Shown here: one piece after another, positions 23,923 to 42,770 of the stretch | Numbering within the stretch: the stretch's first letter is position 1 | How the letters are laid out: each line of letters starts with the position of its first letter | From: Phycisphaerae bacterium | GTDB taxonomy: Bacteria; Planctomycetota; Phycisphaerae; UBA1845 | NCBI GenBank assembly: GCA_024102815.1 | Contig: JAGFJJ010000068.1 | Location: forward strand, 7,915-71,914 | Length of the DNA stretch: 64,000 bases | Direction: 5' to 3' | Made by a program: the position numbers and the translations under genes | Notes under the pieces: generated by a model | The model's input: the letters and a program-made list of their open reading frames with translations, nothing else | What the model was told of the DNA's origin: nothing | Database searches by the model: none

Positions 23923-26900
23923 ATGAAATCGGCGAACTTCGAGTTTCTACGCGGCCGATGGAAGGAGCTCGCGGGCCTTGGCGGGTTCGCCGAGCATTAC
24001 GTTCATCCTGACCCTCCAAGTGCCGCGGTCAAGCTTCGTTCCTACGCCGAGCAAATCGTTGAGCTTATCTGGGAAACCGCTCGTCTTCCAAAGCTCTTCC
24101 AAGCCAACCTTAACGATAAGCTGAACAACGATACGTTTCGAGAAGTCGTGCCGCGTGTTGTCGTGTCAAAGCTCCATGCGCTGAGAATCCACGGCAACAA
24201 GGCTGCGCACGGCGAAAAAGTGACCGCCTCGACCGCGCAGTGGCTCCTTCGCGAAGCCTTTGAGCTCGGGCGTTGGCTCCTCGTCGCATCAGGCGCCGGA
24301 AGTAAGGACGACTGCCCAGACTTCATTGAGCCATCACCGCCATCCGCCAAACCATCTGCCGATCAACTCAAGCAAGAAAAGCGTGCAGTGCTCGAGAAGC
24401 TTGCCGCACAAGAAGCGGAGATGCTAAAGCTCCTCGCCGAACTGGAAGCGGCGCGTGAGGCGGCCCAGACGGCGGAAGCCAGCGCTGACGAACTACGTTC
24501 CACACTCGAAGCCGGAACTCAGGCGGCAAACGTACTCGATTTCACCGAAGAACAAACTCGGCATGCGCTCATAGATTCCATGCTCATCAGTGCCGGCTGG
24601 GACGTCGGCCGAAACCGTCAGAGCAATTCGGAAGTAGGCCAAGAGATCGAAGTCGAGCATCAGCCCACCGACTCCGGCATCGGCTACGCCGACTATGTGC
24701 TCTACGACGAAGATGAAGTGACACCTCTAGCAGTAATCGAAGCGAAGAAGACATCCAAGGACGCTGAGGCCGGGAGGACCCAGGCCAAGTGTTATGCAGA
24801 CGGTCTTGAGCAGATGTCAGGCACTCGACCTGTCATCTTCTACACCAACGGGTTCGACATCTGGATTTGGAACGACGCCGAACATGAGCCACCACGCAAA
24901 ATCTTCGGCTTCTATTCCAAGGACAGCCTGCAGTACAAGCACTTTCAGCGACAGTACCCAATGGCCCCGTCGGTGGTCAAACCCGACGCGCAGATCGCGG
25001 GCCGACTCTACCAGATGGAAGCCATCAACCGCGTCGTGGAACGCTACGCAGCAAAACACTCCAGGGCTTTGCTCGTTCAGGCAACCGGTACCGGCAAAAC
25101 GCGCGTGGCCGTGTCTTTGTGCGCGGCGTTGATTAATGCGAAGCGCGTCCGACGAGTTCTGTTCCTTTGCGACCGACGGGAGCTACGGAAACAGGCCCAC
25201 AACGTGTTCAAACGGTTCTTGCCCGGCGAGCCGCGCGTCTACGTCAGCGCCACAACTGCCCAGGATCGCGACAAGCGCATTTACCTTGCGACCTACCCTG
25301 CCATGATGAAGTGTTTCGAGAGCTTCGACGTGGGCTTCTTCGATCTCATCATCGCGGACGAGTCCCATCGCAGCATCTACAACCGCTACCGGGATCTCGT
25401 TCGATACTTCGATGGCCTGTGCCTCGGGCTGACGGCCACGCCGCGAAGTGACTTGGTCTCACACAATACCTATCAGCTTTTCGGCTGCGACGACGGTGTT
25501 CCAACGGCCTACTTCAGCTACGAAGATGCAATCAATGCCAACCCGCCGTATCTGAGTCGGTTCGAGGTCGAGAAGGTTACGACGCCGTTCCTGCGCAAGG
25601 GCATCAAATACACCGAGATGACGGCCAAGCAGCGCGAGCAGCTCGAGGAAGACGAAGTGATGCCGGAGGCGATAGAGTTCGAGCAGCGTGAGGTTGACAA
25701 GCACATTTTCAACAAGGACACCAACCGTAAGATCCTTCGGAACCTGATGGAACACGGCATCCGTGACGCATCGGGCACGCGGGTCGGAAAGACCATCATC
25801 TTCGCGCGCAACCACAACCATGCCGTCTTGCTGCAGAACCTCTTCGATGAAATGTATCCACAGTATGGTGGAAACTTCTGCCGCGTGATTGACAACTACG
25901 ATCCACGCGCCGAGGAGCTCATCGACGATTTCAAGGGCGAGGGCAAGAATCCGGATCTGACGATCGCAATTTCCGTCGACATGCTCGACACGGGCATCGA
26001 CGTTCCCGAAATCGTAAACCTGGTGTTCGCCAAGCCGGTCTACTCGTACATCAAGTTCTGGCAGATGATCGGCCGGGGCACCCGTCTTTGCGAGGATCTC
26101 TTCGGGCGCGGCCAGAACAAGTCGAAGTTCCTCATCTTCGACCATTGGGGCAACTTCGAGTACTTCGAAGAACAGTACAAGGCCGCGGAGGTGAGCCTGC
26201 CGAAATCATTGCCTCAGCGACTCTTCGAGGCCCGCATCCGTTTGGCGGAAGCCGCGCTACAGCAGCAAGACACCGAGGCCTTCGACCTAACGATCTCGCT
26301 GATTCGGCAGGATATCGCCGACCTCCCCGACAAGACCATCGCCGTGCGCGAACACTGGAAGCAGATCAAAATCGTGGAACGCGAAGAACTGTTGCGCCAG
26401 TTCGATGCCGCAACCAAGGGAGTCCTTTTCCAGGAAATCGCTCCGCTCATGCAATGGCGAAATGTGGCGGGCCACGAGGCCGCGTACAAGTTCGATCTGA
26501 ACATGTGCATGGCCCAGAAAGCCCGGCTGGACAACGCCAGCCGGTACGGCGACCTGCGGGACGATCTTCGCAACCAGATCGAGCAGCTTCAGATGAACCT
26601 CAGCCAGGTCCGCGCCAGGGCGTCGGCCATCAACGAAGCGCGCAGTGCCGCCTTCTGGGATAACGCGACTGTATCCGACCTTGAGCGAATCCGTAGCGAG
26701 CTGCGCGGAATCATGAAGTACCGTCAGCCGTCGACGACGACAGCCTACCAACCCAAGGTCATCGACGTCGTCGAGGATGACGCGCTGATCGAACGAAAGC
26801 CGCACAAGGTTAAGCTGGAAGGGCTCGATCTCGCGGCCTACCGCGCCCGCGTCGAGCAGGTTCTCAAGGAACTCTTCGATGAAAACCCGACACTGCAACG

Positions 26901-27324
26901 CATCCAACGGGGCGAGCCGGTCACCGACGACGATCTACGCGCGTTGAATTCACTTGTGTTGACCCAGGACCCCGAACTCGACCTTTCCGAGTTGACGGAG
27001 TACTACCCCGAGACCGCCGGCCACCTGGACCTGGCGATCCGCAACATCATCGGCCTGGATGGCGCCGCCGTCCGCCGGCGATTCGAGACGTTTGTGCAGA
27101 CCCACGCGTCGCTGAACTCGCAGCAGATTCGTTTTCTAGACATGCTACAGAACCACATCGCCAGCTACGGCTCGATTACGGTCGATCGGCTTTACGAAGA
27201 TCCGTTCACCTCGCTCCACAGCGACGGCATCGATGGCGTGTTCACCGACGAGGCGACGATCCAGGAACTCATTGACATCATCGGGGCCTTCAACCCGGCC
27301 GCGCAAGGAGGCGAAAGCGAATGA
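23923..27324 (+). CDS. hsdR: type I restriction enzyme R subunit (DUF4145-like N-terminus, HSDR_N nuclease, SF2 helicase, EcoEI-type C-terminal domain)
   Basis: MKSANFEFL...[11 protein letters not shown] (DUF4145-like). [23 protein letters not shown] (PD-(D/E)xK). [10 protein letters not shown] and DESH helicase motifs. QMIGRGTR motif VI. Start at ATG 23923 preferred over the track start 23824. Confidence 0.9.
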
Positions 27325-28880
27325 TTACCGGCAAACTCAAGAGCGATATCAACAAGCTCTGGGATGAATTCTGGACTGGCGGCATCAGTAACCCGCTGAC
27401 CGTCATCGAGCAGATCACCTACCTCATGTTCTTCCGGCTGCTCGATCTCGCGGCAGCCCGGGAAGAAAAAAAGGCAGCTCGCACCGGCAAGAAGGCAACA
27501 ACGCCATTCAACAAGAAGCAGCAACTCCTTCGCTGGTCGCAATTCAAGAGCCTCGGCGGCGAGGAGATGCTCAAGCGCATCCGCGACGAGGTGTTCCCCC
27601 ATTTTCGCGACATGGCCAGCGAGGAATCGACCTTTGGGCGTTACATGAAGGACGCCCAGCTGATGATTCAAAAGCCGAGTCTGCTCGTCTCGGCCGTCTC
27701 GATGATCGACAACCTCCCGCTCGACAAGGGCGATACCAAGGGCGATCTGTACGAATACGTCCTCAGCAAACTCACGACCGCCGGGATTAACGGCCAGTTC
27801 CGCACACCGCGCCACATCATCCGCCTCATGGTCGAACTGGTCGATCCCAAGCCGGACGAAACCGTTGGCGACCCGGCCTGTGGAACCGGCGGGTTTCTTG
27901 TCGCAGCCATGACCTATCTGCTGGAGAAATACACGTCCAAGGCCGGGCGCATCGAACAACTCGACGAAGACGGCCGACCGGTCAAGGACGATCGCGGCAA
28001 TCCGCAGTACATCTACACCGGCGACAAACTTGAACCCTACCGCAAACATATTCAGCGCGACATGTTCCACGGCTTCGATTTCGACGCCACCATGCTGCGC
28101 ATCGCCGTGATGAACATGATGCTCCACGGCGTCGATAATCCCAGCATCGACTACCAGGATGCGCTCAGCAACTCCTTTCCCGAGCGCTTTCCGAAGACGG
28201 CCTCCGACCACTTCGATGTCATTTTGGCCAATCCGCCGTTCAAGGGCAGCCTCGATCACAGTGACGTGCATTCGTCACTAACGGGCAAGATCAAGACGAA
28301 GAAGACCGAGCTGCTCTTTCCGACGCTCATGCTGCGCATGCTGAAGGACCCGGGCGGGCGATGTGCAGTTATCGTCCCGGACGGTGTCCTGTTCGGTTCG
28401 TCCAAGGCCCATCGCGATCTCAAGCAGATGCTCGTGGACGACAATGAGCTGCACGCGGTGATCAAGCTGCCGGCTGGCGTGTTCAAGCCCTACGCCGGAG
28501 TATCGACGGCCATTCTGTACTTCGCCAAGGGGGGTAAGACCGGCGACGTGTTCTTCTACGATGTGCAGGCCGACGGGCTCAGCCTGGACGATAAGCGCAC
28601 GCCCGTCGACGAGAATGATCTTCCCGATGTGATGGCGCAGTGGAATAGGTGGAGTAACGGTAATGGCAAGAAATCGTTCGCCGATCGCAAGAACAAAGCG
28701 TTCTTCGTTCCGGTTTCGGATATCCGCGAAGCCAAATACGACCTTTCCATCAACCGCTACAAGGAGGTCGTCTACGAGGAGCCCGAGTTCGACCCGCCGA
28801 AAGCAATCTTGAAGCGATTGGCCAAGTTGAACGAACAAGAGGCCAAAGAGCTTGCTGAGCTGGAGGGAATGCTGAAGTGA
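27321..28880 (+). CDS. hsdM: type I R-M N6-adenine DNA methyltransferase subunit
   Basis: [13 protein letters not shown] (motif I) and LANPPFKG (NPPF). 4-bp overlap with hsdR. Confidence 0.95.
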
Positions 28881-30094
28881 TGCGTATGGCGGCATTGCAA
28901 GACGTAACTGAGCTAAACCCTTCGACACCGCGGGAACTAAGCGAGCGCCCTGAGCTCCCTGTCAGTTTCGTGCCAATGACTGATGTCGGAGAGGATGGTC
29001 GTCTTCACAACGGCCAGGAGCGCCCAGTCGGCGAGTTACTGAAGGGCTATACGTACTTCTCTGAGGGCGACGTGCTAGTCGCGAAGATCACGCCGTGCAT
29101 GCAAAACGGTAAGGCGGCGCACGTGACCCGGCTGAAAAACAAACACGCGTTCGGTTCGACCGAATTCCACGTTCTTCGTCCCGGCCCGACGCTTGACGGT
29201 CGATACCTCTTTTACATGGTCTGGAATCCAGCGTTCAGGCACTACGCCGAGCAGCGATTCACAGGCTCTGCGGGCCAAAAGCGCGTTCCCGCGACCGCAG
29301 TCGCGGAATTCAAGATCCCAATTCCATTTCCGAATGATGCGAAGCGCAGTCTAAAGGAGCAGAAGCGGATCGCGGAGATCCTCGACAAGGCCGACGCCAT
29401 CCGGCAACAGCGCCAAGAAGCCGCCAAGCTGGCCGGTGACCTCATCCCGAGCTTATTCTACACGACCTTCGACGACTGGCTCCGTGCGCCTGTCGAAGAG
29501 ATGCGCAGGCTCGGCGACGAAGATCTTGCGGATATCGCGTCCGGCGTTACGAAGGGGCGTCGATTCAATGGTCAGCAGACTGTCATCGTTCCCTACATCC
29601 GCGTCGCAAATGTACAGGACGGGTATCTCGACCTTTCGGAGATCAAGACAATAGAAGTCCTGCCATCCGATGTTGAATCGCTGCGGCTCGAACACGGCGA
29701 TGTCCTTATGACAGAAGGTGGTGACTTCGATAAGCTCGGGCGTGGCACGATTTGGGAACATGATGTTCCCGATTGCATTCATCAGAACCATATCTTTCGC
29801 GTTCGGTGCAACAGGAACTTACTTCTGCCGCTGTACTTTGCGCATTACATCCGAAGCCACCTTGGCAAGGCGTATTTTCTCAGATGCGCAAAGAAGACAT
29901 CGAATCTCGCGACCATCAATAAAACTCAGTTGCGAGACTTGCCTGTCCCGCTGCCTCCCATAGCCTTGCAGAAGGCATTTGCCAAAGAAGTGAAAGGCAT
30001 CCGCAAAATACAGGGCCGCCACGCTGAAATATGCTATGCTGGCGATGACCTCTTCAACTCGTTGGCACAGCGGGCATTTCGGGGAGAGCTATGA
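28877..30094 (+). CDS. hsdS: type I R-M specificity subunit (two target-recognition domains)
   Basis: [23 protein letters not shown]...[10 protein letters not shown]...TGSAGQKRV...[19 protein letters not shown] and a second TRD. 4-bp overlap with hsdM. Confidence 0.85.
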
Positions 30095-31404
30095 GCCACT
30101 TCGATAATAGGTTCCAAAACCACGCACTGCAGAACTCTCTGAAAGAGCTCCAACAGAAGATCGATTCCGCCAAGCTGAAACTGGACGATACCGCGCAAAC
30201 CGAAGGATACGCCCGGTTCTGCAAGATCGTGAGTCTCGCGAAGGGCGTACTTGAGACCGTCGATCCGGAACTTGTTACAGAGCAGGCGCTCAATCAGGTG
30301 CAGGGCGCCATCTCGAACATGTCTGCCCATTTCGATGCCTTTGTTGAAAAGAAGGATTGGAACCACCTCAACCAACCGGCCGACCAACTCCTGAACGTCC
30401 TCCACTTGCTGCCGCGAAACGAGCTGGCGGATGGCGATAGGCCATATGCCGAGCAAATCGCCAAGCTACAAGGCGCCGCTGAATCCGTAGTCGATGGTTT
30501 GCGCGCCGGTGCCGTGAAGATCGAAAAACAGCATCAACAGGTCGCCCAGAAGGTCAGCCAATTGGGTCAAAAGGTCGGTGCCTTCGAGAGCGAGATCGTT
30601 GAGCAGAAGAAACGCATCGACACCCTGATCAATGAGCAAACCACGCAGTTCTCTCAGAGGGCGGAAGAACGAAACACCAAGTTCAACGAGCAACATGGCC
30701 GATTCGAGCAAACCGAGAGCCAGCGGGCGCAGCAGTTTGCCGAGCGATTCGGGCAGTTCAAAACTGAGCACAAAGAAGTAACGAACGAAATCCGCGAGTC
30801 GGCGAAGAAGCTCTTGGATGAACAGCGCACCGCCTTCGATACGCTTGTTTCAGAGCATCGCTCAGAATCCCAGGAGGTGCTCGACGAGCTCAAGGTCAAT
30901 CTCGAAGAAGCGGCCAAGATTGTGGGGCTGATCGGGAACACGGGCCTAACTGGAAACTACCAGCGCGTGGCGAACGCGGAGAAGAAGATCGCTGACCTCT
31001 TTCGCTGGATCGCCATAGGATGCATGTTGGTGATGGTTGTGTGTGTCGTTCTCATCGTGCGAAACATCACCGCGCAGGACTTCAACTGGGAAATAGCGCT
31101 GTTCCGTCTACTCGCGGCGATCGCTTTCGGAGCGCCGGCATGGTACTGCGCGCACGAATCCACGCGTCACCGCAGAAATGAGCATCGAAACCGCCGCATC
31201 GAACTGGAATTGGCGTCCCTGAGCCCATACTTGGCTGAGATGCCGGATGAGGAACGACGTAAGATCATCGCTGAACTCTCAAAGGATTACTTTGGCCGCG
31301 AGGATGATCTGGGGCAAGACGAGATCGTCAACAAGCTAAAGCACCTTCGCGGCGAGGACCTGATCAAGCTGATGGAGCGATTGCTGAAGGCAGCGCGGCC
31401 ATGA
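30091..31404 (+). CDS. coiled-coil protein with two predicted transmembrane helices, translationally coupled to hsdS
   Basis: ATGA overlap with the hsdS stop. Long Gln/Glu/Lys-rich helical N-terminal region. Hydrophobic helices WIAIGCMLVMVVCVVLIV and LFRLLAAIAFGAPAWYCA. No family recognised. Confidence 0.65.
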   Translation: MSHFDNRFQNHALQNSLKELQQKIDSAKLKLDDTAQTEGYARFCKIVSLAKGVLETVDPELVTEQALNQVQGAISNMSAHFDAFVEKKDWNHLNQPADQLLNVLHLLPRNELADGDRPYAEQIAKLQGAAESVVDGLRAGAVKIEKQHQQVAQKVSQLGQKVGAFESEIVEQKKRIDTLINEQTTQFSQRAEERNTKFNEQHGRFEQTESQRAQQFAERFGQFKTEHKEVTNEIRESAKKLLDEQRTAFDTLVSEHRSESQEVLDELKVNLEEAAKIVGLIGNTGLTGNYQRVANAEKKIADLFRWIAIGCMLVMVVCVVLIVRNITAQDFNWEIALFRLLAAIAFGAPAWYCAHESTRHRRNEHRNRRIELELASLSPYLAEMPDEERRKIIAELSKDYFGREDDLGQDEIVNKLKHLRGEDLIKLMERLLKAARP

Positions 31405-31556
31405 AAGTGAACGGGAAGATCGACAAACGCCGCACGAGATTCGTATTGAGTAGCGCCGCGCCGGCCGGACTAGGGGGCGCATTAAATGGCGATTGACTGG
31501 ATATCGGCCACGGAACCGTTCAACTCGCTTGTACAGCGAGCGTCTCGAGGAGAGCT

Positions 31557-32210
31557 ATGAGCATCCGGGCAAGGATCGAAGATGCAGTTGTGCTGTGGCA
31601 CACTGGCCGGCGCGAGGGCGCCCTTCTCTCGGCGCTTGTCGCAGCGGCTGCAACATCGCGGAAACGCTATCCTAAGGGGCGGCACGCTTACGATCGGCGT
31701 CGTTCTCTAGTGCGGAGAGCGATCAACGGGCTCTTTGGCCGAGGGTCAAAGACCAACGCAGCACCACCGCACAAGCCCAATGTTTCCGACATTCATGGAA
31801 ACATGGAAATGGGCAAATACTGGCCATCTTCCGACAAGGAAAACAGGCTGAAGAAACCCAGAGGTGACCGCGTCGCCTTTACTCAATTCGTGCATGACGA
31901 GATGCGCCTGATCGGCGGGCCGGAGAACTTCAATCTGAAATTCAGAGGCGAAATGTGGCCACTCCAAGAACTCCTTTACACGTTCATCCGTTGCGAGCTG
32001 GCCCACGAGGCAGGCATACCGCGGGACATCGTTTTTGAGCCGGGTGATCAGTTCTCCATATGTGTCACTGACGAGCAACTTACGCTGCCTGAGATTCTGG
32101 TCGATCGCATCGCATCGGCCGTACGGCTGGCGCCGGAGAATGCGAGCGACTTCGAGAATTGGGACGAGTGGATTGTGGACACCTTTAGTAGCCGCAGTGA
32201 AGAGCTATGA
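31557..32210 (+). CDS. hypothetical protein
   Basis: GAGGAGAG upstream of the ATG. 217 aa with ordinary composition. No family recognised. Confidence 0.5.
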   Translation: MSIRARIEDAVVLWHTGRREGALLSALVAAAATSRKRYPKGRHAYDRRRSLVRRAINGLFGRGSKTNAAPPHKPNVSDIHGNMEMGKYWPSSDKENRLKKPRGDRVAFTQFVHDEMRLIGGPENFNLKFRGEMWPLQELLYTFIRCELAHEAGIPRDIVFEPGDQFSICVTDEQLTLPEILVDRIASAVRLAPENASDFENWDEWIVDTFSSRSEEL

Positions 32211-32229
32211 ATATTGTAGGAGTTGCCCC

Positions 32230-32547
32230 ATGTCCGAAATCGTGAAACGAGTTTCGCTACATTTTCCGGAAGAGAATTTGACCACCACGGCAAAAGTAGC
32301 TAACGCGATCATTCGCCCCGTCTACATTCGAGAAGAAGGTGAGGACACCTGTGTTTACTTACTCGTTGACGATAAGGAACAAACCACGGATGCTGATTTC
32401 TTCCTGCTGGCAACCAATGAAGCGATGCCCCCACGCCGAAACGCGGAATGGTTAGGTTCTTACGTGCGCGGCGACGGCGAAGTTTGGCACTTATTCGTCG
32501 AGCATCGCGCGGATAAAGGCCACAAATTCTGGAAGGCTTATGCATGA
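32230..32547 (+). CDS. hypothetical protein
   Basis: Internal ATG 32230 (MSEIVKRVSLHF...) lies 8 nt after AGGAG. The upstream part of track ORF 32035..32547 overlaps the previous gene. Confidence 0.4.
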   Translation: MSEIVKRVSLHFPEENLTTTAKVANAIIRPVYIREEGEDTCVYLLVDDKEQTTDADFFLLATNEAMPPRRNAEWLGSYVRGDGEVWHLFVEHRADKGHKFWKAYA

Positions 32548-32713
32548 AGGCCGCTGGCGAACGATGCTGAATATGATGGACGGACTCCGATCGACAAGGG
32601 CTGGGCACCTTGGATCATCCCGCGACGGTGGTGATCTTATCCATCTGCTCGATCAACGGGTGTTCTGAGGGATGTTATAGAGGCAACGACGCGGAAAAAA
32701 GCGAGAACGGCAA

Positions 32714-34633
32714 ATGGCGGACGACTATCAAATCCAGGTCAACTTCTTGCCGATCGTCGGTGAACTGCCGAGCTTCGAGGTGTACCGCCGGCTCCGCAAA
32801 GATCCACAGGAAGAAAGACCAAGCTCCGAGAGTATGTCGCATTCGCTGCCTGTCTCGGGCTCAGACCTTGAAGAGCGAGCATCTTACTGGGTGAGCTTCA
32901 CGCCCACGGATTCCTTCGAACGTGTTCCAGTGGAGCCCTCGTTCAACCACGACTTAACGCGCGCCTTGCTGTTCCGGTGCATGCGTGATGCTGCAACGCA
33001 GAAGCTCCAGTCGGAGGAGTTTCACATTCCAGATCGCGGTTTCGTGGACGAGATCAGCTTCGTCATGGCGCGGCATCGGGAAGGACAAGAGCTACTCGTT
33101 GTTCAGCCGTACTACCTGCGAGCGACAGGACGCTTTGGATATCTTGTAGACTTTCATTTCCGGCTCGCCGACGACGTTCCGTTCTCGCGCCGCGTACAGC
33201 AGTTGAGCCTCAGCCTGGATCGGAACTTTCATCGGAACCTGGACTACTACGTCGACCGAACAAGTCGAATTCGGGCATTCCTACAGACGCAGAAGGCCCT
33301 CCTCGCGTCGCTTTCTGTGCCAGGAGCTTCCGTGCCCATGCGGATCTCAGACGAATTCGTGGACTTGCGGGCATTCCGCCTGCGATCGCGTTCATACGTC
33401 TTCGGCGCCGGACGTGAATCGCGGAGCCAATTCGTGGGCCTGAAAGAGCACGGGCCCATGAAGCCGTTGGAAACATCGCCTCGGCTACTGTTCTTCTTTC
33501 GAGAGCAGGACCGCACCGCGGCACGGAAACTAGCAATGTCGCTACGCGGATCGGGTGGCCGGGAGAGGTTCGCGTTTCCCGGCTTTCGTGCCCTTTTCAA
33601 GACGGACCTAACGCTCGATTCAGATCCAATCGTGTTGCCCGACTTCTCCCAGGCAGCGATGGCTAACGCGCTCGCACGCGTCAAGGAAGAGGATGGCCTA
33701 GTGCTGCCCGTTCTTGTTCTGCCAGATGATGACGAGAACGCGTATCTGACGCACAAGGCCACGTTCGTGCATGCAGGAATACCGTCCCAGGTCTGCACGC
33801 TTCCCGTCATCCAAGATGACGACACGCTCAAGTGGTCGATCGCGAACATTGCGTTGCAGATCTTTTGTAAGGCCGGTGGACAACCCTGGAAGGTGCGCCC
33901 GACGGGTGAGCCTTCGGTTATCATCGGCATCAGCCAATCACACAAACTGCGCCGAAAAGACGAATCCATAACAGTCGAGAAGTACTTCGCGTTCTCCGTC
34001 ATGACTGATAGCAGCGGGCTGTTCCAGCGGATCCAAATACTGGGGGAGGCGAGTGACGAGCTTTCGTACCTGGACCAGCTGCGAACCAGCCTCGCGCAGG
34101 TATTGGCGGAGACGTCGCAGCGCTTTTCCCGAGTCGTGATTCACACGTCGTTCAAGCTTCGCCACCGCGAGATGGACGCCATTCACAAGACTGTCGCTCA
34201 GGCGGCCGGCAAGACGGATCGCACTCAATGCCGTTTTGCCGTTGTCAAAGTCAATCACCGCCATCGGTTCTTCGGAGTCAATCGAGCGGTCAATAGCCTA
34301 GTACCGTTTGAAGCCACCGCTGTGCGGCTTGGCCCTGGTGAGTATCTTGTCTGGTTTGAGGGCATATTCCCTGATAAGCCTACCGTTACCAAGGCATTCC
34401 CGGGTCCTACGCACCTCAAGTTCCTTCGCGTCAGCGACGACAATGCGATCACGGACAATGAGTTGCTTCAGGACTTGGTCAATCTGTCGGGAGCGAATTG
34501 GAGGGGCTTCAATGCAAAAAGTGCTCCCGTCTCCGTGTTTTACTGTCACCTCGTTGCGAATCTCGTCCATGACTTCCACGAGCGTGGCCTGCCACTTCCG
34601 GCTGTCCAGGATCTGCGTCCGTGGTTCTTATGA
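32714..34633 (+). CDS. prokaryotic Argonaute (MID-PIWI), catalytically inactive
   Basis: MID 5'-end pocket YLTHKATFVHAGIPSQV. KAGGQPWKV. The PIWI first catalytic position reads VIIGISQSH (no Asp) and the RDG position reads VVIHTSFKL. C-terminal PVSVFYCHLVANLV. ~270-aa N-terminal region with no recognisable PAZ. Confidence 0.85.
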   Translation: MADDYQIQVNFLPIVGELPSFEVYRRLRKDPQEERPSSESMSHSLPVSGSDLEERASYWVSFTPTDSFERVPVEPSFNHDLTRALLFRCMRDAATQKLQSEEFHIPDRGFVDEISFVMARHREGQELLVVQPYYLRATGRFGYLVDFHFRLADDVPFSRRVQQLSLSLDRNFHRNLDYYVDRTSRIRAFLQTQKALLASLSVPGASVPMRISDEFVDLRAFRLRSRSYVFGAGRESRSQFVGLKEHGPMKPLETSPRLLFFFREQDRTAARKLAMSLRGSGGRERFAFPGFRALFKTDLTLDSDPIVLPDFSQAAMANALARVKEEDGLVLPVLVLPDDDENAYLTHKATFVHAGIPSQVCTLPVIQDDDTLKWSIANIALQIFCKAGGQPWKVRPTGEPSVIIGISQSHKLRRKDESITVEKYFAFSVMTDSSGLFQRIQILGEASDELSYLDQLRTSLAQVLAETSQRFSRVVIHTSFKLRHREMDAIHKTVAQAAGKTDRTQCRFAVVKVNHRHRFFGVNRAVNSLVPFEATAVRLGPGEYLVWFEGIFPDKPTVTKAFPGPTHLKFLRVSDDNAITDNELLQDLVNLSGANWRGFNAKSAPVSVFYCHLVANLVHDFHERGLPLPAVQDLRPWFL

Positions 34634-34639
34634 GGTCGC

Positions 34640-35743
34640 GTGATGACAACTCGCTCTAAGGACATAATCCTGCTCTTCGGCGCCGGCGCAAGCGCCGAGG
34701 CGGGTATTCCGACATCAGGGCAGATGATCGAGAGAATCGAATCGCTCTTCACGTCGCATGATGACTGGAAGCCGTACTACGACCTGTACAACCACGTGAA
34801 GAGTGCAATCTACTACGCCGCAGGGCTCAAAGGACAATTCAACGCGGACGTGCTCTACAATATTGAGACCCTGGTGAACACCCTTTATGAATTGGAGCGT
34901 AACGAGGATCACCCGCTCTACCCATTTATCGCCTCCTGGAACTCCCGCCTCGTCGCCTTGGCGCAGGGGGACTTCGCAGGTGTCCGCTCCCTCCGCAGCT
35001 TGATCCTGCGAGAGCTGAAGGGCTGGGTATGCCCAGACGATACAACCCCGGCCGACTACTATCGGGGCTTACTGCAGCTTCAACGTGATCTCAACTACCC
35101 GCTCCGAATCTTCTCGCTGAATTACGACTTGCTTGTTGAACGGCTCGAATCACCTGAGTTTCACATTGAGACTGGTTTCGCAGGGTACGGTCCGAGCCAC
35201 ATCTGGGACTGGGAAAGGTTTGAGGATAGCGAGTCGTCACCTAACCCCTTGCCGCAGGCCTTCCTGTACAAGCTTCACGGCTCGATCAACTGGAAGCGTG
35301 ACGACGCGACGAAGAACCTTTACCGCGTCGAGCACGTCGCAACCGTCGAGCCCGAACGAATGGAAGTGATCTTCGGCCGAGACTTTAAGCTGGAAGCCGC
35401 CGATCCTTATTTGTTCTATGCGTATGAGTTTCGCAAGTTCACGCTGATTGCGAAGCTAATCGTCACTGTAGGATATGGCTTCGGAGATGCCCATATCAAC
35501 AAGATGTTGACCCAAAGCCTCCGGGATGAGGGTAGCAGAAAACTTATCGTCGTGGCGCGATGTGCTGACGAGGAAGAACGTCGCGCCAGGCGACAGGATA
35601 TCGAGGATCGTTTGGAGCTTGACGAAGGACACGATGATCAAATCGACGTGCGTTCAGAATCGGCGTGTGATTTCCTGGGAATGAACGAGCTGAGCAATGT
35701 CCTCTTGTCAGCAATACCTGAGAGCCCGAACGCGCCCTTCTAA
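34640..35743 (+). CDS. SIR2-family protein (pAgo-associated effector candidate)
   Basis: LLFGAGASAEAGIPTSGQM (GAGxSxxxGIP), FSLNYDLLVE, LYKLHGSINW (catalytic His context). Starts 7 bp after the pAgo stop (GTG 34640 or ATG 34643). Too short (367 aa) to carry an APAZ domain. Confidence 0.8.
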   Translation: MMTTRSKDIILLFGAGASAEAGIPTSGQMIERIESLFTSHDDWKPYYDLYNHVKSAIYYAAGLKGQFNADVLYNIETLVNTLYELERNEDHPLYPFIASWNSRLVALAQGDFAGVRSLRSLILRELKGWVCPDDTTPADYYRGLLQLQRDLNYPLRIFSLNYDLLVERLESPEFHIETGFAGYGPSHIWDWERFEDSESSPNPLPQAFLYKLHGSINWKRDDATKNLYRVEHVATVEPERMEVIFGRDFKLEAADPYLFYAYEFRKFTLIAKLIVTVGYGFGDAHINKMLTQSLRDEGSRKLIVVARCADEEERRARRQDIEDRLELDEGHDDQIDVRSESACDFLGMNELSNVLLSAIPESPNAPF

Positions 35744-35767
35744 GGTGATGGAATCGCGGCGGACCGC

Positions 35768-37618
35768 GTGCTTGCCGACTGTAACCAAGGTGCTCTGGAA
35801 CTGATCTTGAACATCGACGAATGCCAACTTGACGAAGTTCTGGACCGATTCGACGGGCAGACCGCGCCTTTCGACGAAGTCGAGATCACGGAAGCCATAC
35901 AGACCCTGGCGCACGCGCGTGGGGATGTTCAAAAGCTCAGCGAACATGAACTTGCCGAGGGGATGGCGTTTAGCTTTGCCACCACGTGTCCAGAGGAGCC
36001 GTCACCGTGGGGAACGTACTACGGACCCAAGAACGAGTGGCAGACCAAGAGCGGGGAACGCGTCGAGCGCCCCAGCATCAAGAGCGTGTCGGAGAGCATG
36101 CTCAAGTACTGGGAGTGTCGCCTCGAGAAAGCGAAGCACCCGCGACTTCGAGCCAGATACGCAGATCTGATCTTTGATTTTACAGAGAAGATCACAGGCA
36201 AGAAGCCGGACTACCAGCTTGCACACGTGGTTATTGACGAGACAGTTCAACTCGTCGAGGAACGGCTATTTCATTTCATGAGTGATGTCCGTGTCAAACT
36301 GACACGAGCCTTAGATCTTGCCGTCCGGCTCAACGACCAGGAGAGAATCAAGCGAGTGTGCGACGCCATTATCGCTTGTGAGGAGAAGAGCTTAGATAAC
36401 GACGGTGATGCGGCTCGCGGTCTTGCATTCGACCTTCTTGTTGAAGGCGACCATAAGGTGAAGCTCAGTGAGCAACAGGAAGCGGGCGTGATCGCTGGAC
36501 TCGAGAAACACCTCGTGTGCGTAGCGACAGGTGAGCCGCCGAAGTTTGACCCATTCGGCACCGAATCTTCGGCACTGCGGCTCGCGCACTACTATCGGCG
36601 CAAAAAGCGCGGTGACGACCTTCAACGCGTCCTACGCCTTTACACCGATGCATGGATTCGCATCTCGAGCGAGGCTTGGCCGATGCTGGGCGCCACTTGG
36701 CTGGAGAAGGTCCACAAGGTGCTGCTCGACTTCGGTCGGAAACAAGACGCAGACGCCCTGGAGGTTCGACTCCGGAAGTTGGCCGGCAGGTCGCACGAGA
36801 ATATGGCTACAATTCGTCATAGCGTCCAGTTTACCCAAGAGGAGGTTGATGAGTTCCTCAATGCTACGACCGCCGGTGATTTGCATACGACCCTGGCGCG
36901 CATCGCTGTCCAATTCCTGCCGGATCCCGAGGACGCCAAGAAGCAGGTGCTCGATACTGCCGAACAGTCTCCGCTCTTTTCACTTTTCACCAAGCGGATC
37001 ATCGATTGGGACGGGAGAGTCATCGCCGATGTCGGATCGCCAGAGAACGACATGGAGGGACAGGTCGCCCACGAGATAGGAGAAAGTATGGGCTTCTGGG
37101 TCCCGTTCCTTCGGGCGACCATCGAGAAGATGGGCGAGAAGTACGCTGTTTCTCCGGACGACATTCTTGATTTTCTATATCTATCGCCAGCGCTCACCGA
37201 GGATCGGCGCGACCTGATTCGCGCTGGGGTCGATGCGTACCTTAACGGCCAGTGCGCATTGGCGGTACACATTCTGGTGCCGCAAATCGAGGGCGCCGTG
37301 AGGAACTTGGTCGGCGGACTTGGCGGGCCGGTACTCGAACGCGGTCGCCATGGAGGAATGAATCTGAGAAACCTCGATAAGCTGCTCCGGGATGAGCGAT
37401 TGACTGCCGCGCTAACTGATCGCGTGTCAGTTTATCTGCGCGTTTTGTTCACCGACCAGCGCGGCTGGAACGCACGCAACAACATCTGCCATGGCCTTCT
37501 ACCAGGGGCACAGATTGGAACACCCATAGCGGATCGAGTGTTTCATGCCCTGTTGCTTCTCGGAGCACTGCGCGAAGGAACGCCGGCACCCGACGAGGAG
37601 AAAGGCAGCGGTAGCTGA
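35768..37618 (+). CDS. DUF4209-like protein
   Basis: The C-terminal GWNARNNICHGLL fits the RNxxxHG signature I associate with DUF4209. Large helical protein with a GTG start 25 bp after the SIR2 stop. Confidence 0.6.
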   Translation: MLADCNQGALELILNIDECQLDEVLDRFDGQTAPFDEVEITEAIQTLAHARGDVQKLSEHELAEGMAFSFATTCPEEPSPWGTYYGPKNEWQTKSGERVERPSIKSVSESMLKYWECRLEKAKHPRLRARYADLIFDFTEKITGKKPDYQLAHVVIDETVQLVEERLFHFMSDVRVKLTRALDLAVRLNDQERIKRVCDAIIACEEKSLDNDGDAARGLAFDLLVEGDHKVKLSEQQEAGVIAGLEKHLVCVATGEPPKFDPFGTESSALRLAHYYRRKKRGDDLQRVLRLYTDAWIRISSEAWPMLGATWLEKVHKVLLDFGRKQDADALEVRLRKLAGRSHENMATIRHSVQFTQEEVDEFLNATTAGDLHTTLARIAVQFLPDPEDAKKQVLDTAEQSPLFSLFTKRIIDWDGRVIADVGSPENDMEGQVAHEIGESMGFWVPFLRATIEKMGEKYAVSPDDILDFLYLSPALTEDRRDLIRAGVDAYLNGQCALAVHILVPQIEGAVRNLVGGLGGPVLERGRHGGMNLRNLDKLLRDERLTAALTDRVSVYLRVLFTDQRGWNARNNICHGLLPGAQIGTPIADRVFHALLLLGALREGTPAPDEEKGSGS

Positions 37619-37732
37619 CGTGTACAAACAGGCTTGCATCCGGACAAGTCGCCTTGTGCTGTTGCTCGCGGGCAGATGCGCACGAATGGGCCTGCGAGGC
37701 CCTGGAGGGTTCCCGTGGTCATGGTGGCGGAG

Positions 37733-37747
37733 TGGCACGGCGGTTGC
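37733..37747 (+). promoter_or_regulatory. candidate sigma-54 (-24/-12) promoter upstream of the DUF2130 gene
   Basis: gTGGCACG-GCGG-TTGCc matches TGGCACG-N4-TTGC exactly in both core boxes. ~46 bp upstream of ATG 37793, with AAGGAG in between. Confidence 0.55.
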
Positions 37748-37792
37748 CCTTAGGCAGGTAAAGATGACTGACACGATGGCAAGGAGAATAAA

Positions 37793-39259
37793 ATGAGCAG
37801 CACCATCACCTGCCCCAACTGTGACAACGAGATCGAGATTACTGAAGTCATGTCGGCCCAGCTTCGCGACGAAATTCGCCGTGAACTGGAGAAGGACGTC
37901 AACGTCAAGCGGCAACAACTCACGGCACGGGAACGCGAGATCGAGAAACGCCAGCTCGAGATCGATGAGGCGGAGAAATCGATCGACGCGAAGGTCGGCA
38001 AGCAACTCGCTGCCGAGCGCGATAAGCTCGAGGCGAGTGCCAGAGCGAAAGCGAAGGAGGAGCTGGGTGTCGAACTGAAGGACCGGGACGCGCAGATCAC
38101 GGAGCTGCGCGACAAGGTGAAGACCGCCGAGGAGACGGAGCTAGCTCTTCGCAAGAGGGAACGGGAACTTAAGGATCGGGAAGGTGAGCTTGCCCAGCAG
38201 CGGGACCGGATGGAGGAGGAGGCTCGCCAGAAGCTCGACGCTGCGCGACAAGGACTGATTGACCGGGCCAAGGCCGAAGCGAAGAACGAGCTGTCCGTCG
38301 AAATGAAGGATCGTGATGAACGCGAGGCCGAGCTGCGCGGTAAACTCGACGAGGCCAACAAGCAGGAACTCGAATGGCGGAAGCGCGAACGAGCCCTGAA
38401 CGCGGAGAAGGAAGAACTGGAGCTTTCAGTACAACGGCGTCTCACTGAAGAACGCGACAAGATTCGTGACGAAGCGCTCAAGAAGGCGGATGAGGATCAT
38501 CGATTGAAGGATGCCGAGAAGGACAAGAAGATCACCGATCTGGTGAAGCAGCTCGACGAGGCCAAGCGTCGTGCCGAGCAGGGTTCTCAGCAGTCGCAGG
38601 GCGAGATCCAGGAGCTGGCGCTTGAGGAGATGCTTGCGAGCCGATTCCCCGCTGACGATTTTGCGGAGATCGGCAAAGGCGTGGCCGGCGCCGACGTGAT
38701 GCAGCGTGTGCGGACGTCGGCCGGTGTCGATGCCGGCTCGATCCTCTGGGAATCAAAACGAACGAAGAGCTGGAAGAAGGAGTGGCTGCCGAAGCTGCGC
38801 AAGGATCAACGCGAGGCGAAGGCTGACGTCACCGTGATCGTTAGTGCGCACCTGCCCGACGGCGTGGAGACTTTTTCGCAGATTGATGGTGTGTGGGTCT
38901 GCAGCTGGCCGTGCGCTGTGAGCCTGGCGATGGCACTGCGCAGTGGGTTGCTTGAGACGGCCAAGGCCCGCCGAGCGCTGGCCGGGCAACAGGGGAAGAT
39001 GGAACAGGTGTACAACTACCTGGCCAGCCCGGAGTTTCGCAACCGCGTGGCCGGGATTGCCGAGGCGTTCGCCACGATGCAGCAGGATCTGGACAAAGAG
39101 AAGCGGGCGATCCAGAACCACTGGGCCAAACGGGAAAAGCAGATCGAGCAGGCGGTGGCTAACACGGCCGGAATGTACGGCGATTTGCAGGGCATCATCG
39201 GCGGATCCCTCCCGGAAATTCAGGGGATGGACATGTTGATGCTTGAGGCGAATGCATGA
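37793..39259 (+). CDS. DUF2130-family protein (N-terminal zinc ribbon, long coiled coil, C-terminal nuclease-like domain)
   Basis: ITCPNCDNEIEI start. ~250 aa of Glu/Lys/Arg coiled coil. C-terminal GADVMQRV...GSILWESKRTKSWKKEWLPKLRKDQREAKADVTVIVSAHLP is typical of DUF2130 as I recall it. Confidence 0.75.
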   Translation: MSSTITCPNCDNEIEITEVMSAQLRDEIRRELEKDVNVKRQQLTAREREIEKRQLEIDEAEKSIDAKVGKQLAAERDKLEASARAKAKEELGVELKDRDAQITELRDKVKTAEETELALRKRERELKDREGELAQQRDRMEEEARQKLDAARQGLIDRAKAEAKNELSVEMKDRDEREAELRGKLDEANKQELEWRKRERALNAEKEELELSVQRRLTEERDKIRDEALKKADEDHRLKDAEKDKKITDLVKQLDEAKRRAEQGSQQSQGEIQELALEEMLASRFPADDFAEIGKGVAGADVMQRVRTSAGVDAGSILWESKRTKSWKKEWLPKLRKDQREAKADVTVIVSAHLPDGVETFSQIDGVWVCSWPCAVSLAMALRSGLLETAKARRALAGQQGKMEQVYNYLASPEFRNRVAGIAEAFATMQQDLDKEKRAIQNHWAKREKQIEQAVANTAGMYGDLQGIIGGSLPEIQGMDMLMLEANA

Positions 39260-39308
39260 CCATGATCTACGATCCCGCGCCCGCCACAAACTTCGAGAGA
39301 TTAACCTG

Positions 39309-40202
39309 ATGACCGACAAAAGCGATCAAGGTCTTGACAATCAAACCGGTGGAGTCAAGTTCGGGCATCACATCGTCACGCTGATCGACTTCCTGGGCCA
39401 GCAAAGGCAACTTGAGAAATGGGATTTTCTTCCCGAAACTGAGTACGACACGGACGAGTTTGTCGCAGCGGTGCGCGCAACATTCGGCAAGGTAACCGTT
39501 TGGCGCGACCAGTTCAGCGAGAAGTTCAATCTCTGGCTGGAATCACGGTCGCTGCCGGTTGAGTTTGCGAAGACACTCCCTGACGAGGGTCGCGCGTATC
39601 GTGAGTTTGCACATACCACACTGGACTTCATGCAATTCTCCGACACGATTGTGATCTACTCGCCGATCGTCAATCAATACGGCCACGCAAACTGCGGGAC
39701 GGTCCTAGCTCATTTGTTTACTTGTGGGACCCTGATGCTGGCGGCGCTCAACCAGGATTGCGCGTTCCGCGGCGCCATCGAAATCGGCATGGCTGGGCAG
39801 ATCGACGAGGCAGGGATCTACGGGCCAGTTCTCGGCTCCGTCCATAACCTTGAGAGCACGGTGGCCGAGTATCCCCGGATTCTCGTTGGAGATAGACTTC
39901 ACGAGTACCTTGTTGCCCAGGCAGCAGATCCCGAGGATTCTCGGGAATCGAAAACGAATCGTGAAATCGCGAAGACATGCCTGAGATTGATCGGCATCGA
40001 CCTCGATCAACACAGGATTCTCGACTACATGGGGCGCGGGTTTGTTGAGTTTGCCACGAACAAGGATAGTTGGAACATGCTTCGCGATGGAGCATGTGCG
40101 TTCGCGGATCAGGAACGTGAGCGATTCAATGAGGCCGCCGACCAGAAACTTGCAGATCGATATACCCGTATGTGCGAGTACCACGCGTCACGAAGCACGT
40201 GA
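39309..40202 (+). CDS. hypothetical protein; possible nucleotidyl-cyclase/palm-like fold (weak)
   Basis: ATG 39309 (MTDKSDQG...). HHIVTLIDFLGQQ, MQFSDTIVIYSP and AFRGAIEIGMAGQIDEAGIYGPVLGSVHNLES loosely parallel class III cyclase blocks (xDIxGFT / GDxxxxxF / RIGIHxG...G..VN.A.R.ES). Confidence 0.45.
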   Translation: MTDKSDQGLDNQTGGVKFGHHIVTLIDFLGQQRQLEKWDFLPETEYDTDEFVAAVRATFGKVTVWRDQFSEKFNLWLESRSLPVEFAKTLPDEGRAYREFAHTTLDFMQFSDTIVIYSPIVNQYGHANCGTVLAHLFTCGTLMLAALNQDCAFRGAIEIGMAGQIDEAGIYGPVLGSVHNLESTVAEYPRILVGDRLHEYLVAQAADPEDSRESKTNREIAKTCLRLIGIDLDQHRILDYMGRGFVEFATNKDSWNMLRDGACAFADQERERFNEAADQKLADRYTRMCEYHASRST

Positions 40203-40250
40203 TCGTGATGTATCCCGCAGGCTCGGGCCTTTTTCTAGATCGGTGAACGC

Positions 40251-41819
40251 ATGATCACAGCCATCGAAATCGAAAACTTCAAGGGGATTGCGGACCGCAT
40301 TCGCATCGATCTCAAGCCAATCACCTTACTGTTCGGTGCCAACAGCTCGGGAAAGAGCACGATCATCCACGCCCTCCATTACGCACGCGAGGTTCTCGTA
40401 CGCCAGAATCTCGACGCCGACCGGACAGAGGCGGGCGGCGAGTTCATAGACCTCGGAGGATTCAGAAACTTCGTCCACAACAGGGACTTGGACCGCGAGA
40501 TCCACCTGCGCTTTGCCCTCAGTTTGCCTGAGGGTGAGATGCTTCCGTACTTTGGTCGATCGTCAGAGCAGCCGTATGGCGAGACCTTGCTTGATCTTCT
40601 GAATCACGTTCGCACGGCCGAGGTGGAGATTGTAATCGCATGGAGCCGGGCTGCTGAGCGACCATATGTTAAGCAGTATCTCGTTGATATTGATGGCTCG
40701 CGCGTTGGCACGCTCGCTGCGACGCCGGATACCCCGCACCAAGCGATGCTCTTGGTTGAGCGTTTGCACCCGTGGCTTAATGCGCAACCCGACAGTGCGG
40801 ATCCGGACACGCCGACAGAATGGCGGCAGATGGTGGACGATGTGCTCCCCGATGCGCCCCCGAAGTGGTTTGAGTTGCCCGTTGAGGCGCGACACGAGGC
40901 TCTGCCGAGTCTCGATTCCGGCCTATCTTGCCCGAAGCTCTTCGAGGACGTGGAGTTGGAGAAGCAGCCACTGGCAGAATCTATGATGCACGTCGTAAAT
41001 CGCATGGTGCTCGGCCCTGGCAAACTCGTTCGAGATGTTCTGCGGGCCTTTCGGTACATCGGGCCGCTACGAGAGAAGCCGCCACGTGCCTTCGAGGCGC
41101 CTCGCTTTCCCGATCCCTCACGATGGACAACCGGGATCGCCGCTTGGGACACGCTCTACAATGGAAACCGCGATGTTCTGGAGGAAGTGGGTGAGTGGTT
41201 GTCCGAACCGTCGCGTTTGGCGGCCGGCTGCTGGTTAAGGATGACCGAATACAAGGAGCTCGAGGTTGACAATCCGTTGATGTCACAATTGATGCTCGGC
41301 CACGCGTTCGATGACACCGATTTGGAGGAGGCCCGACAGTACTTGCAGCAGCTACCCGTTCGTAGGCGGTTGTTTTTGGTTGACCGAGAGTCCGGCGTCG
41401 CGCTGTTGCCGCACGATGTAGGAGAGGGGATTTCGCAGATTGTTCCCGTCGTCGTAGCCTTGTTGGAACAGAACCGACCGTTAACCGCCGTGGAACAGCC
41501 CGAGCTTCACGTGCACCCCGCCGTACAGGTGGGTATCGGCGACCTTTTGATCGAGGCCGTCGAGCGCGGAGAGTTCCCGGTCGTGCTTGAAACGCATAGC
41601 GAACATCTACTCCTCCGCCTTCTCCGCCGAATTCGCGAATCGGGAGAGAATGCACTTCCGCCGGATGTTCACGGCCTGTCGCCGTCGGACCTGTCGGTTG
41701 TTTTTCTTGACCTATCGGATGCCGGTATCCGAGTTACAAGTCTTCGCATCGATGAAACGGGCGAGTTCATTGACCGTTGGCCGCAGGGGTTCTTCGAGGA
41801 ACGACTACCTGAAGTGTGA
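40251..41819 (+). CDS. ABC/SMC-like AAA ATPase (AAA_15/21 type, DUF3696-like C-terminus)
   Basis: IENFKGI...LLFGANSSGKSTIIHAL (Walker A). VEQPELHVHP...VLETHSEHLL (Walker B / D-loop / H). C-terminal FIDRWPQGFFEE. Confidence 0.85.
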   Translation: MITAIEIENFKGIADRIRIDLKPITLLFGANSSGKSTIIHALHYAREVLVRQNLDADRTEAGGEFIDLGGFRNFVHNRDLDREIHLRFALSLPEGEMLPYFGRSSEQPYGETLLDLLNHVRTAEVEIVIAWSRAAERPYVKQYLVDIDGSRVGTLAATPDTPHQAMLLVERLHPWLNAQPDSADPDTPTEWRQMVDDVLPDAPPKWFELPVEARHEALPSLDSGLSCPKLFEDVELEKQPLAESMMHVVNRMVLGPGKLVRDVLRAFRYIGPLREKPPRAFEAPRFPDPSRWTTGIAAWDTLYNGNRDVLEEVGEWLSEPSRLAAGCWLRMTEYKELEVDNPLMSQLMLGHAFDDTDLEEARQYLQQLPVRRRLFLVDRESGVALLPHDVGEGISQIVPVVVALLEQNRPLTAVEQPELHVHPAVQVGIGDLLIEAVERGEFPVVLETHSEHLLLRLLRRIRESGENALPPDVHGLSPSDLSVVFLDLSDAGIRVTSLRIDETGEFIDRWPQGFFEERLPEV

Positions 41820-41828
41820 CGTACCGCG

Positions 41829-42770
41829 ATGCTACACGAGTTTGCGATCGACCCAGCGGCTATGAATAGCCTCGACAGAGTCGCACGTTTTATGGCTGCG
41901 TGTGGATCGGATACGCCGCGCCTTGTGTCGCACATGCCCTGCGGTGGTTGGCTTAACGCGGCGGTTAAGGCCTGTGCGATCGCTGGTTGTGGACCACACG
42001 CGCAAAAGCGCGTTGAAATCTTGATCGACGCTGCGATAAAGCGAGGCCGATTCATCGACCGTCAACGAAAAGCGCCTGCGACTATCACCTGGATCCAAGC
42101 GGCACTCGATGAACATGCCCGGCTACCCTTCCGTGCGATTCTCTCCAATCAACGCATTACCGATTCGCCCGTTACGTTGAACGTCGAGGACGATCTTTCT
42201 GATGAAACCCTGTGGAACCCGCCGAGGTCGGTGACGATACAACGGACCATTCCTGCATTGGTCGAGACTCTCCGCCCTATGCTCCAGCTGGCACGGAAAG
42301 TCGTGATAATAGAGCCGAACTTCGACATCGGCAGTCGTTCGTTCACGGAACCGTTAAGAGCCATGCTCCTTGAAGCGAACAAGACGCCGCCAGATCTCAA
42401 ACTGGTCGAGTTGCACATGACCAACAGCTTTGACGGCCTGCACAACTACCTTGCCGATGAATGTCGCGAGCAGATCGAACTGCTCATTCCCGCCAATGTA
42501 AACGCAGAGATATACTTATGGGAAGGCGGTGTCCTCAGAGGGAATACCTCGGCAACCGATCGGTTGCATGATCGCTTCATGTTGACAAACCGAGGTGGGG
42601 TAATGGTCGGATGGGGATTCGACACGCGTCCCGGATCGCAAACTACGATCACACTTCTTGATGACACGACGTGCCGTGAAATCGAGCGGGATGTATCGTG
42701 CGAGACGCGCCGGTTCCGTATGGCCGGTCGCTCACCCATCCAGTTTACGGGCCGTGCCATGCCGTCATGA
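41829..42770 (+). CDS. hypothetical protein, partner of the AAA ATPase
   Basis: Starts 9 bp after the ATPase stop. 313 aa with ordinary composition. Conserved-looking DRLHDRFMLTNRGGVMVGWGFD near the C-terminus. No family recognised. Confidence 0.55.
   Translation: MLHEFAIDPAAMNSLDRVARFMAACGSDTPRLVSHMPCGGWLNAAVKACAIAGCGPHAQKRVEILIDAAIKRGRFIDRQRKAPATITWIQAALDEHARLPFRAILSNQRITDSPVTLNVEDDLSDETLWNPPRSVTIQRTIPALVETLRPMLQLARKVVIIEPNFDIGSRSFTEPLRAMLLEANKTPPDLKLVELHMTNSFDGLHNYLADECREQIELLIPANVNAEIYLWEGGVLRGNTSATDRLHDRFMLTNRGGVMVGWGFDTRPGSQTTITLLDDTTCREIERDVSCETRRFRMAGRSPIQFTGRAMPS

Follow-up and report, generated by a model that had tools for sequence, protein, structure and literature searches.

The closest described relative of the locus studied here is GbBPAS. 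Song et al. (2023, Nat Commun) named and tested BPAS, in which a long-B prokaryotic Argonaute (pAgo) is followed by a SIR2_2 protein; GbBPAS consists of GbAgo (HAG96803) and GbbAgaS (HAG96802) (PMC10620215). GbbAgaS was toxic alone and was silenced by the binding of GbAgo, and a CloDF13 plasmid triggered a loss of NAD+ that was dependent on N155 (PMC10620215). A second family of relevance is the C6orf70/DUF4209 HEPN family, which occurs in operons related to restriction-modification (R-M) (Anantharaman et al., 2013; PMC3710099); no experiment on this DUF4209/PDC-S39 family was found in the literature. Here, a stretch of 64,000 nucleotides from a Phycisphaerae bacterium (assembly GCA_024102815.1, contig JAGFJJ010000068.1, positions 7,915 to 71,914), referred to below as the window, was analyzed, in which a pAgo gene, a SIR2 gene and a DUF4209 gene follow one another closely. 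The comparisons described below indicate that the three genes very probably represent two independent defence modules, a two-gene BPAS and a DUF4209 gene, which are neighbours within an island that was acquired horizontally and is anchored by a type I R-M operon. The three genes are as follows.

32714-34633, + strand: pAgo gene, 639 aa, ATG start; approximate domains N-lobe (N/L1/L2) 1-238, MID 239-398 and PIWI* 399-639.
34640-35743, + strand: SIR2 gene (bAgaS), stand-alone SIR2_2 predicted NADase, 367 aa from a GTG start, the next codon (34643) being ATG; assigned from Pfam SIR2_2, PADLOC Aga_SIR2 class II and the identity to GbbAgaS.
35768-37618, + strand: DUF4209 gene (third gene), DUF4209/C6orf70-type protein, 616 aa from a GTG start (603 aa from the TTG at 35807); assigned from Pfam DUF4209 and PADLOC PDC-S39; all-helical protein in which TPR-like repeats are combined with a HEPN domain at the C-terminus.

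The first base of the SIR2 gene lies 7 bases past the last base of the pAgo stop codon, leaving a gap of 6 nt. The public gene call for the DUF4209 gene uses the TTG start at 35807, and the two candidate starts therefore give a SIR2-DUF4209 gap of 24-63 bp. The three open reading frames (ORFs) and all motifs quoted in a preliminary description of this DNA were recovered from the sequence and its translations: AYLTHKATFVHAGIPSQ, IIGISQSH and VVIHTSF in the pAgo, GAGASAEAGIP, SLNYD and KLHGS in the SIR2 protein, and RNNICHG in the DUF4209 protein. Pfam searches predicted a Piwi domain in the pAgo (1.7e-20), SIR2_2 (PF13289) in the SIR2 protein (1.3e-11) and DUF4209 in the third protein (4.5e-14), and PADLOC assigned the same proteins to pAgo_II (1.5e-212, full model length), Aga_SIR2 class II (1.6e-123) and PDC-S39 (2e-38), respectively; all of these matches are far above chance.

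The SIR2 protein could be aligned with GbbAgaS from the first to the last residue (36% identity, E 2e-67). In this alignment N161 corresponds to the essential N155 of GbbAgaS, and a C-terminal IP..P..PF tail is common to both proteins; H213 lies within the KLHGS motif. No APAZ region was found in the SIR2 protein, in which SIR2_2 is the only domain and the SIR2-APAZ (SIR2-PNTD) models of PADLOC match just 30 residues. The preliminary description had regarded the SIR2 protein as a stand-alone protein lacking APAZ and the pair as a BPAS-like, long-B arrangement rather than SPARSA, and both assignments agree with the class II models of PADLOC and with the comparisons to GbBPAS.

A reference set of 33 BPAS loci with flanks of 10 kb on either side was collected from GTDB species genomes of many phyla. 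The SIR2 gene follows the pAgo gene by 5-17 bp in 29 of these 33 loci, and in the remaining four the pAgo genes are truncated or broken. In one of the four (L032:7591-11074), an insertion of about 1.5 kb interrupts the pAgo gene, and the locus looks decayed. The other three, from Acidobacteriota (L018, L020 and L022, around 10001-11833), carry a pAgo without its C-terminal end, with matches stopping at query residue 573-608 of 639, have no SIR2 gene downstream and look decayed as well. Locus L028 has, on the strand opposite to its BPAS pair and 4 kb upstream of it, a second, distant PIWI-like match (5250-6056, - strand; 23% identity to residues 348-621). With at least 491 clusters at E<=1e-10, mostly at about 60% identity, the pAgo family is large, and the subfamily spans Planctomycetota, Acidobacteriota, Verrucomicrobiota and other phyla. 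Judged by sequence, the pAgo and SIR2 genes of the window are an ordinary two-gene copy of BPAS, a conserved unit of an already catalogued family.

The preliminary description had gone further and proposed, as its headline, a three-gene variant of pAgo-SIR2 immunity that includes the DUF4209 gene, a proposal that it regarded as refuted if the DUF4209-like gene were not conserved next to pAgo-SIR2 pairs elsewhere. Such conservation was searched for from both sides. No DUF4209 homologue was found within 10 kb of the pAgo gene in any of the 33 reference loci by tblastn (1e-5), and a DUF4209 family hidden Markov model (HMM), built from 22 homologues and applied to every stop-to-stop ORF of 60 aa or more, revealed no distant relatives near the BPAS pairs of the same loci (0/33), even at E<=10. 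None of the four closer metagenomic relatives with sequence after the SIR2 gene, whose pAgos are 72-73% identical to that of the window, carries a DUF4209 gene there; the fifth close relative, L126, ends within its SIR2 gene. The genes that do follow SIR2 closely and on the same strand in the reference loci encode a reverse transcriptase, a Schlafen/AlbA_2 protein, an SSB-like protein, HsdR (twice), GmrSD and a resolvase.

The reciprocal search started from the DUF4209 protein, whose family is likewise large, at least 460 metagenomic stretches encoding a relative. Neither pAgo nor SIR2 was present at any of 88 loci of DUF4209 homologues, comprising seven close loci (homologues 30-61% identical), the locus of the closest homologue (74% identity), in which the 765 bp available upstream contain no trace of SIR2, and 80 metagenomic loci. 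The latter were taken from the 460 confirmed stretches; 47 of them have at least 1.2 kb and 30 at least 3.1 kb of upstream sequence. A conserved partner gene of DUF4209 was not found among the 80 loci either: the largest cluster of flanking ORFs comprises nine loci and the others at most five, as expected for a solo gene. The adjacency is thus unconserved elsewhere (0/33, 0/4 and 0/88), the DUF4209 gene was rejected as the third gene of a pAgo-SIR2 system, and the headline of the preliminary description is not upheld. That the HEPN gene follows SIR2 so closely is no sign of a new Argonaute system.

Several points weigh against the independence of the two modules. The DUF4209 gene is co-directional with the SIR2 gene at a distance of only 24-63 bp, and no terminator- or promoter-like site was found in this gap, region counts being at chance level; the DUF4209 gene is, from this arrangement, probably co-transcribed with BPAS in this genome, where regulatory coupling is possible. 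Many of the metagenomic contigs are short, so that the absence of neighbours is shown for a part of them only. Moreover, the role of the DUF4209 protein in defence is itself that of a candidate, drawn from genomic context and from the candidate status of the family in PADLOC. The common strand, the short gap and the missing terminator, together with the position of the next recognizable promoter-type site (a sigma-54 match at 37733) past the DUF4209 gene, would also suit a single system of pAgo, SIR2 and DUF4209, in which the HEPN protein, coupled physically or allosterically to the pair, adds a sensor, a regulator or a second effector to it. This explanation is nevertheless highly improbable, because the pAgo-SIR2-DUF4209 adjacency is confined to this genome among the loci compared, because in two further loci, L036 from a Phycisphaerales metagenome-assembled genome and L038 from a metagenome, DUF4209 keeps synteny with other genes, and because the tested GbBPAS functions with two genes. 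Common transcription within a defence island is not proof of one system.

The pAgo was compared with characterized Argonautes. The class II model of PADLOC matched it far better than the class I models (1.5e-212 vs 1e-7 to 1e-9). A profile of 22 family members, searched against the Protein Data Bank (PDB), matched AfAgo (2.9e-24), EcAgo (9.6e-15) and RsAgo (about 3e-12), all of which are long-B proteins; a long-A protein was matched only at 5e-4, and no short-pAgo structure was matched at E<=1e-3. The AlphaFold model of the pAgo has a mean predicted local distance difference test (pLDDT) score of 75 overall and near 90 in the N-lobe, and its best fold match over the whole length is RsAgo. Over the 393 GbAgo residues compared, the pAgo is collinear with GbAgo from residue 6 on (27% identity, E 1e-46). 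The PADLOC, PDB and GbAgo comparisons thus place the pAgo of the window in the long-B clade.

The tetrad positions of EcAgo have been published as G492, E532, Q568 and D700 (PMC13535254). When the family profile was aligned to EcAgo with HMMER, the D-E-D-X positions in the pAgo of the window were S407, E445, S479 and H612. Both catalytic aspartates are therefore lost and occupied by serines, and S407 and S479 are invariant in the 22 family members. The loss of catalytic acidic residues, read from motifs in the preliminary description, is hence borne out by an alignment that shows no intact DEDX tetrad. In the MID pocket, the same 22 members show no variation at Y344, K348, Q359 and K386 and almost none at N378. 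These residues correspond to the YKQTNK pattern of the MID domain of long pAgos, of which the YK type is found in long-B pAgos (Ryazansky et al.; PMC6299218), and the 5'-phosphate pocket noticed earlier is indeed of this kept, YK type. The N-terminal region of its own that had been ascribed to the pAgo is also present, as an N-lobe of about 240 aa that is well folded in the predicted model. The alignment to EcAgo begins in linker 2, with residue 182 of the pAgo facing residue 256 of EcAgo. The N-lobe is accordingly about 75 residues shorter than that of EcAgo, which fits the loss of a PAZ* hairpin of roughly 60 residues, and this offset suggests that the N-lobe lacks PAZ. GbAgo, of equal length, aligns collinearly with the pAgo of the window, and the shortened layout would therefore be normal for the BPAS subfamily.

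The mechanism of the pair can be drawn by analogy from GbBPAS. The YK pocket of the catalytically dead pAgo would accommodate a guide RNA with a 5'-phosphate, and the pAgo would keep the SIR2_2 protein inactive within a complex. Pairing of the guide with single-stranded DNA of an invader would release or activate the SIR2 NADase, and the resulting depletion of NAD+ would kill or arrest the infected cell (abortive infection).

The DUF4209 protein exceeded the cut-off of PF13910 clearly (52.7 bits vs 22.3) and was matched by PDC-S39, a single-gene candidate system of PADLOC, over residues 17-582; DUF7380 of Pfam was matched below its own threshold. Residues R570, N571, H575 and G576, which contain the Rx4H signature of active HEPN RNases, are invariant across 21 DUF4209 homologues. 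The AlphaFold2 model of the protein is confident (pLDDT 84) and consists of helices throughout. A Foldseek search of this model against the PDB revealed no solved structure at E<=0.001; the matches obtained were weak, TPR-like and confined to the repeat region. The DUF4209 gene would stand alone and move independently, its product combining these repeats with a HEPN domain that carries an intact Rx4H RNase motif. The repeat region would sense a cue of infection and thereby elicit RNA cleavage, adding a separate layer of abortive infection. Most likely, the repeats would thus serve as an infection sensor that gates the RNase independently of BPAS.

The surroundings of the three genes in the window consist of two blocks.

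23824-30094, + strand: hsdR-hsdM-hsdS, a type I R-M operon that anchors the island on its upstream side (Pfam, and PADLOC hsdM and hsdS matches).
37793-42770, + strand: DUF2130 gene (PD-(D/E)XK family), gene for an unassigned protein of 319 aa, AAA_15/AAA_21 ATPase gene and the gene for its partner of 313 aa, the downstream scaffold (Pfam and PADLOC).

A scaffold of hsdR-hsdM-hsdS, a slot, the DUF4209 gene and an AAA15 ATPase gene is common to the window (23824-42770), L036 (1-14154) and L038 (1-16151). Between the window and the other two loci, HsdR and HsdM are 72-73%, HsdS 49-50%, DUF4209 50% and the AAA_15/AAA_21 ATPase 39-43% identical; DUF2130 (49%) and the partner of the ATPase (27%) are common to the window and L036 only. 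The genes downstream of DUF4209 have the same order in L036 and partly so in L038. The slot between hsdS and the DUF4209 gene is filled as follows.

Window: three genes of unassigned function, then BPAS.
L036: TIR_2, ThsB_TIR and two small genes.
L038: DUF3825, a Ymh-HEPN gene and one small gene.

Since the contents of the slot differ among the three islands, BPAS is one of several interchangeable cargoes and DUF4209 belongs to the frame, in agreement with the reported presence of its family in R-M-related operons (PMC3710099). The locus represents a clean natural cassette exchange in an island anchored by a type I R-M operon. In 40 genomes belonging to the same family or order, neither the pAgo gene nor the DUF4209 gene was detected, and the island was therefore acquired horizontally. 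A location within restriction loci is frequent for BPAS pairs: genes like hsdM are present upstream of BPAS in 7 of the 33 reference loci. At two loci BPAS is wedged in a type I R-M operon, with hsdR 7 bp after SIR2 in one (L013:3353-10530) and 59 bp after it in the other (L024:10001-16310). An ORF of about 105 aa with no assigned function lies 166 bp upstream of the pAgo gene of the window (32231-32547), and no homologue of it was found beside any other BPAS pair examined. In L036 (7561-7986) and L038 (7565-7990), the DUF4209 gene is preceded at a distance of 10-14 bp by a gene for a membrane protein of 141 aa with an N-terminal hydrophobic helix, 64% identical between the two. No homologue of this protein was found in the window or at other DUF4209 loci, and a possible small partner of DUF4209 would thus be missing from the window.

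The constant association of the three islands with hsdRMS upstream and DUF4209 downstream of differing cargo raises a further explanation, in which the DUF4209 HEPN protein is a PrrC-like guardian that is silenced by HsdRMS and whose RNase is released when a phage inhibits restriction, BPAS being simply an inserted cassette. Anantharaman et al. placed the family in R-M-related operons and proposed an analogy to PrrC for R-M-linked HEPN genes (PMC3710099). However, the three islands share descent, as seen from the identity of their HsdR and HsdM proteins, and may reflect a single event; other close homologues of DUF4209 lie beside AbiE or DruA/GHKL genes or in a Mu-like prophage without R-M, and an hsdM-like gene occurs in the flanks of only 3 of the 80 metagenomic DUF4209 loci. 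We consider a PrrC-like dependence unlikely, and a weaker alternative to two independent modules because the link to R-M is seen in one island lineage only.

Two matches to sigma-54-type -24/-12 promoters flank the stretch from the R-M operon to the DUF4209 gene.

23796-23811: sigma-54-type -24/-12 match TGGCACGGCCCCTGCA, before hsdR.
37733-37748: sigma-54-type -24/-12 match TGGCACGGCGGTTGCC, before the DUF2130 gene.

With these matches before hsdR and DUF2130, the DUF4209 gene would end a transcription unit that holds BPAS. The modules could accordingly be biochemically independent and yet co-regulated: a CARF/sigma-54 activator of the RtcR type, located where the island begins, would turn on R-M, BPAS and the HEPN gene, along with the cassette downstream, as a layered response. 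The positions of both matches, and the absence of terminator hits between hsdS and the end of the DUF4209 gene, agree with such a control, but sigma-54-type matches in the whole window (17 found vs 26 expected) are not above chance. Co-regulation is therefore possible, if on balance somewhat unlikely, and it would not turn the three genes into one system.

A third gene of another kind was found beside the closest relatives of the BPAS pair. All four closest relatives with sequence after SIR2 carry a gene for a reverse transcriptase (RT) of 650-709 aa at 30-94 bp after SIR2, which was assigned by PADLOC to RT_UG19 (1e-136 to 1e-167) at the following positions.

L001:3146-5197, UG19 RT.
L042:11052-13148, UG19 RT.
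L043:11064-13193, UG19 RT.
L125:4218-6170, UG19 RT.

The pAgos of these loci are 72-75% identical to the pAgo of the window. The RT is common to L042 and L043 despite an unlike upstream context, and the RT of L001 shares just 27-28% identity with those of the other three loci, whereas its pAgo and SIR2 are 78-79% and 83-84% identical to theirs. Neither the window nor any of the other 32 reference loci has a UG19 RT gene after SIR2. The pAgo-SIR2-RT arrangement may be a genuine three-gene form of BPAS, or the RT may be a common island neighbour.

The C-terminal domain of UG19-large has been described as very distantly HEPN-like (Mestre et al., 2022). A homology of DUF4209 to this domain was rejected, hhalign giving a probability below 0.1% in comparisons of limited sensitivity that used a single RT each. 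That this BPAS subclade has a real third-gene position after bAgaS for an RNA-directed partner, taken by a UG19-large RT in the relatives and by the DUF4209 HEPN gene in the window, appears very doubtful. If such a position were functional, the HEPN gene would have entered it by exchange and would provide a second effector or a back-up, acting alongside or following the depletion of NAD+.

As two independent modules, the pair and the DUF4209 gene can be compared separately with known systems. The BPAS pair shares with GbBPAS the order of the genes, with the SIR2_2 gene a few bases after that of the pAgo, a collinear pAgo of about the same length, a dead PIWI domain and a YK-type MID pocket. 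It differs in being a divergent orthologue from another phylum-level lineage that occupies the cargo slot of a type I R-M island, and the pair of the window belongs to a large and tightly conserved subfamily with about 60% identity across phyla. With SPARSA, the pair has in common a dead pAgo coupled to a SIR2 NADase and, by homology, abortive infection through the loss of NAD+; in contrast to SPARSA, its SIR2 protein, of the SIR2_2 type and 367 aa long, lacks APAZ, and its pAgo has its own N-lobe and does not consist of MID and PIWI only. EcBPAN and RsAgo are likewise based on long-B pAgos, EcAgo and RsAgo being the best full-length PDB sequence and fold matches, and both tetrad aspartates are substituted in them as well. 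Their partner is a PD-(D/E)XK nuclease, whereas the effector of the window is SIR2, and the N-lobe of EcAgo is about 75 residues longer. The pair therefore adds one member to BPAS, which was characterized in 2023 and is already contained in PADLOC, and has little value as a discovery.

The third gene matches PDC-S39 over its full length and DUF4209 above the Pfam threshold, and with this family (C6orf70/ERMARD-type HEPN) it shares the kept Rx4H motif and the location in an R-M-related island (PMC3710099); it differs from other members in its position directly after a BPAS pair. The DUF4209/PDC-S39 family is a large family of solo defence candidates with a eukaryotic relative, ERMARD/C6orf70. 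PrrC-EcoprrI is an anticodon nuclease of the HEPN type whose gene lies within a type I R-M locus; the DUF4209 gene has in common with it the linkage of a HEPN RNase gene to hsdRMS and a possible second-line abortive role. Unlike PrrC, the DUF4209 protein lacks an ABC-ATPase domain and belongs to another HEPN family, and its link to R-M is restricted to one island lineage.

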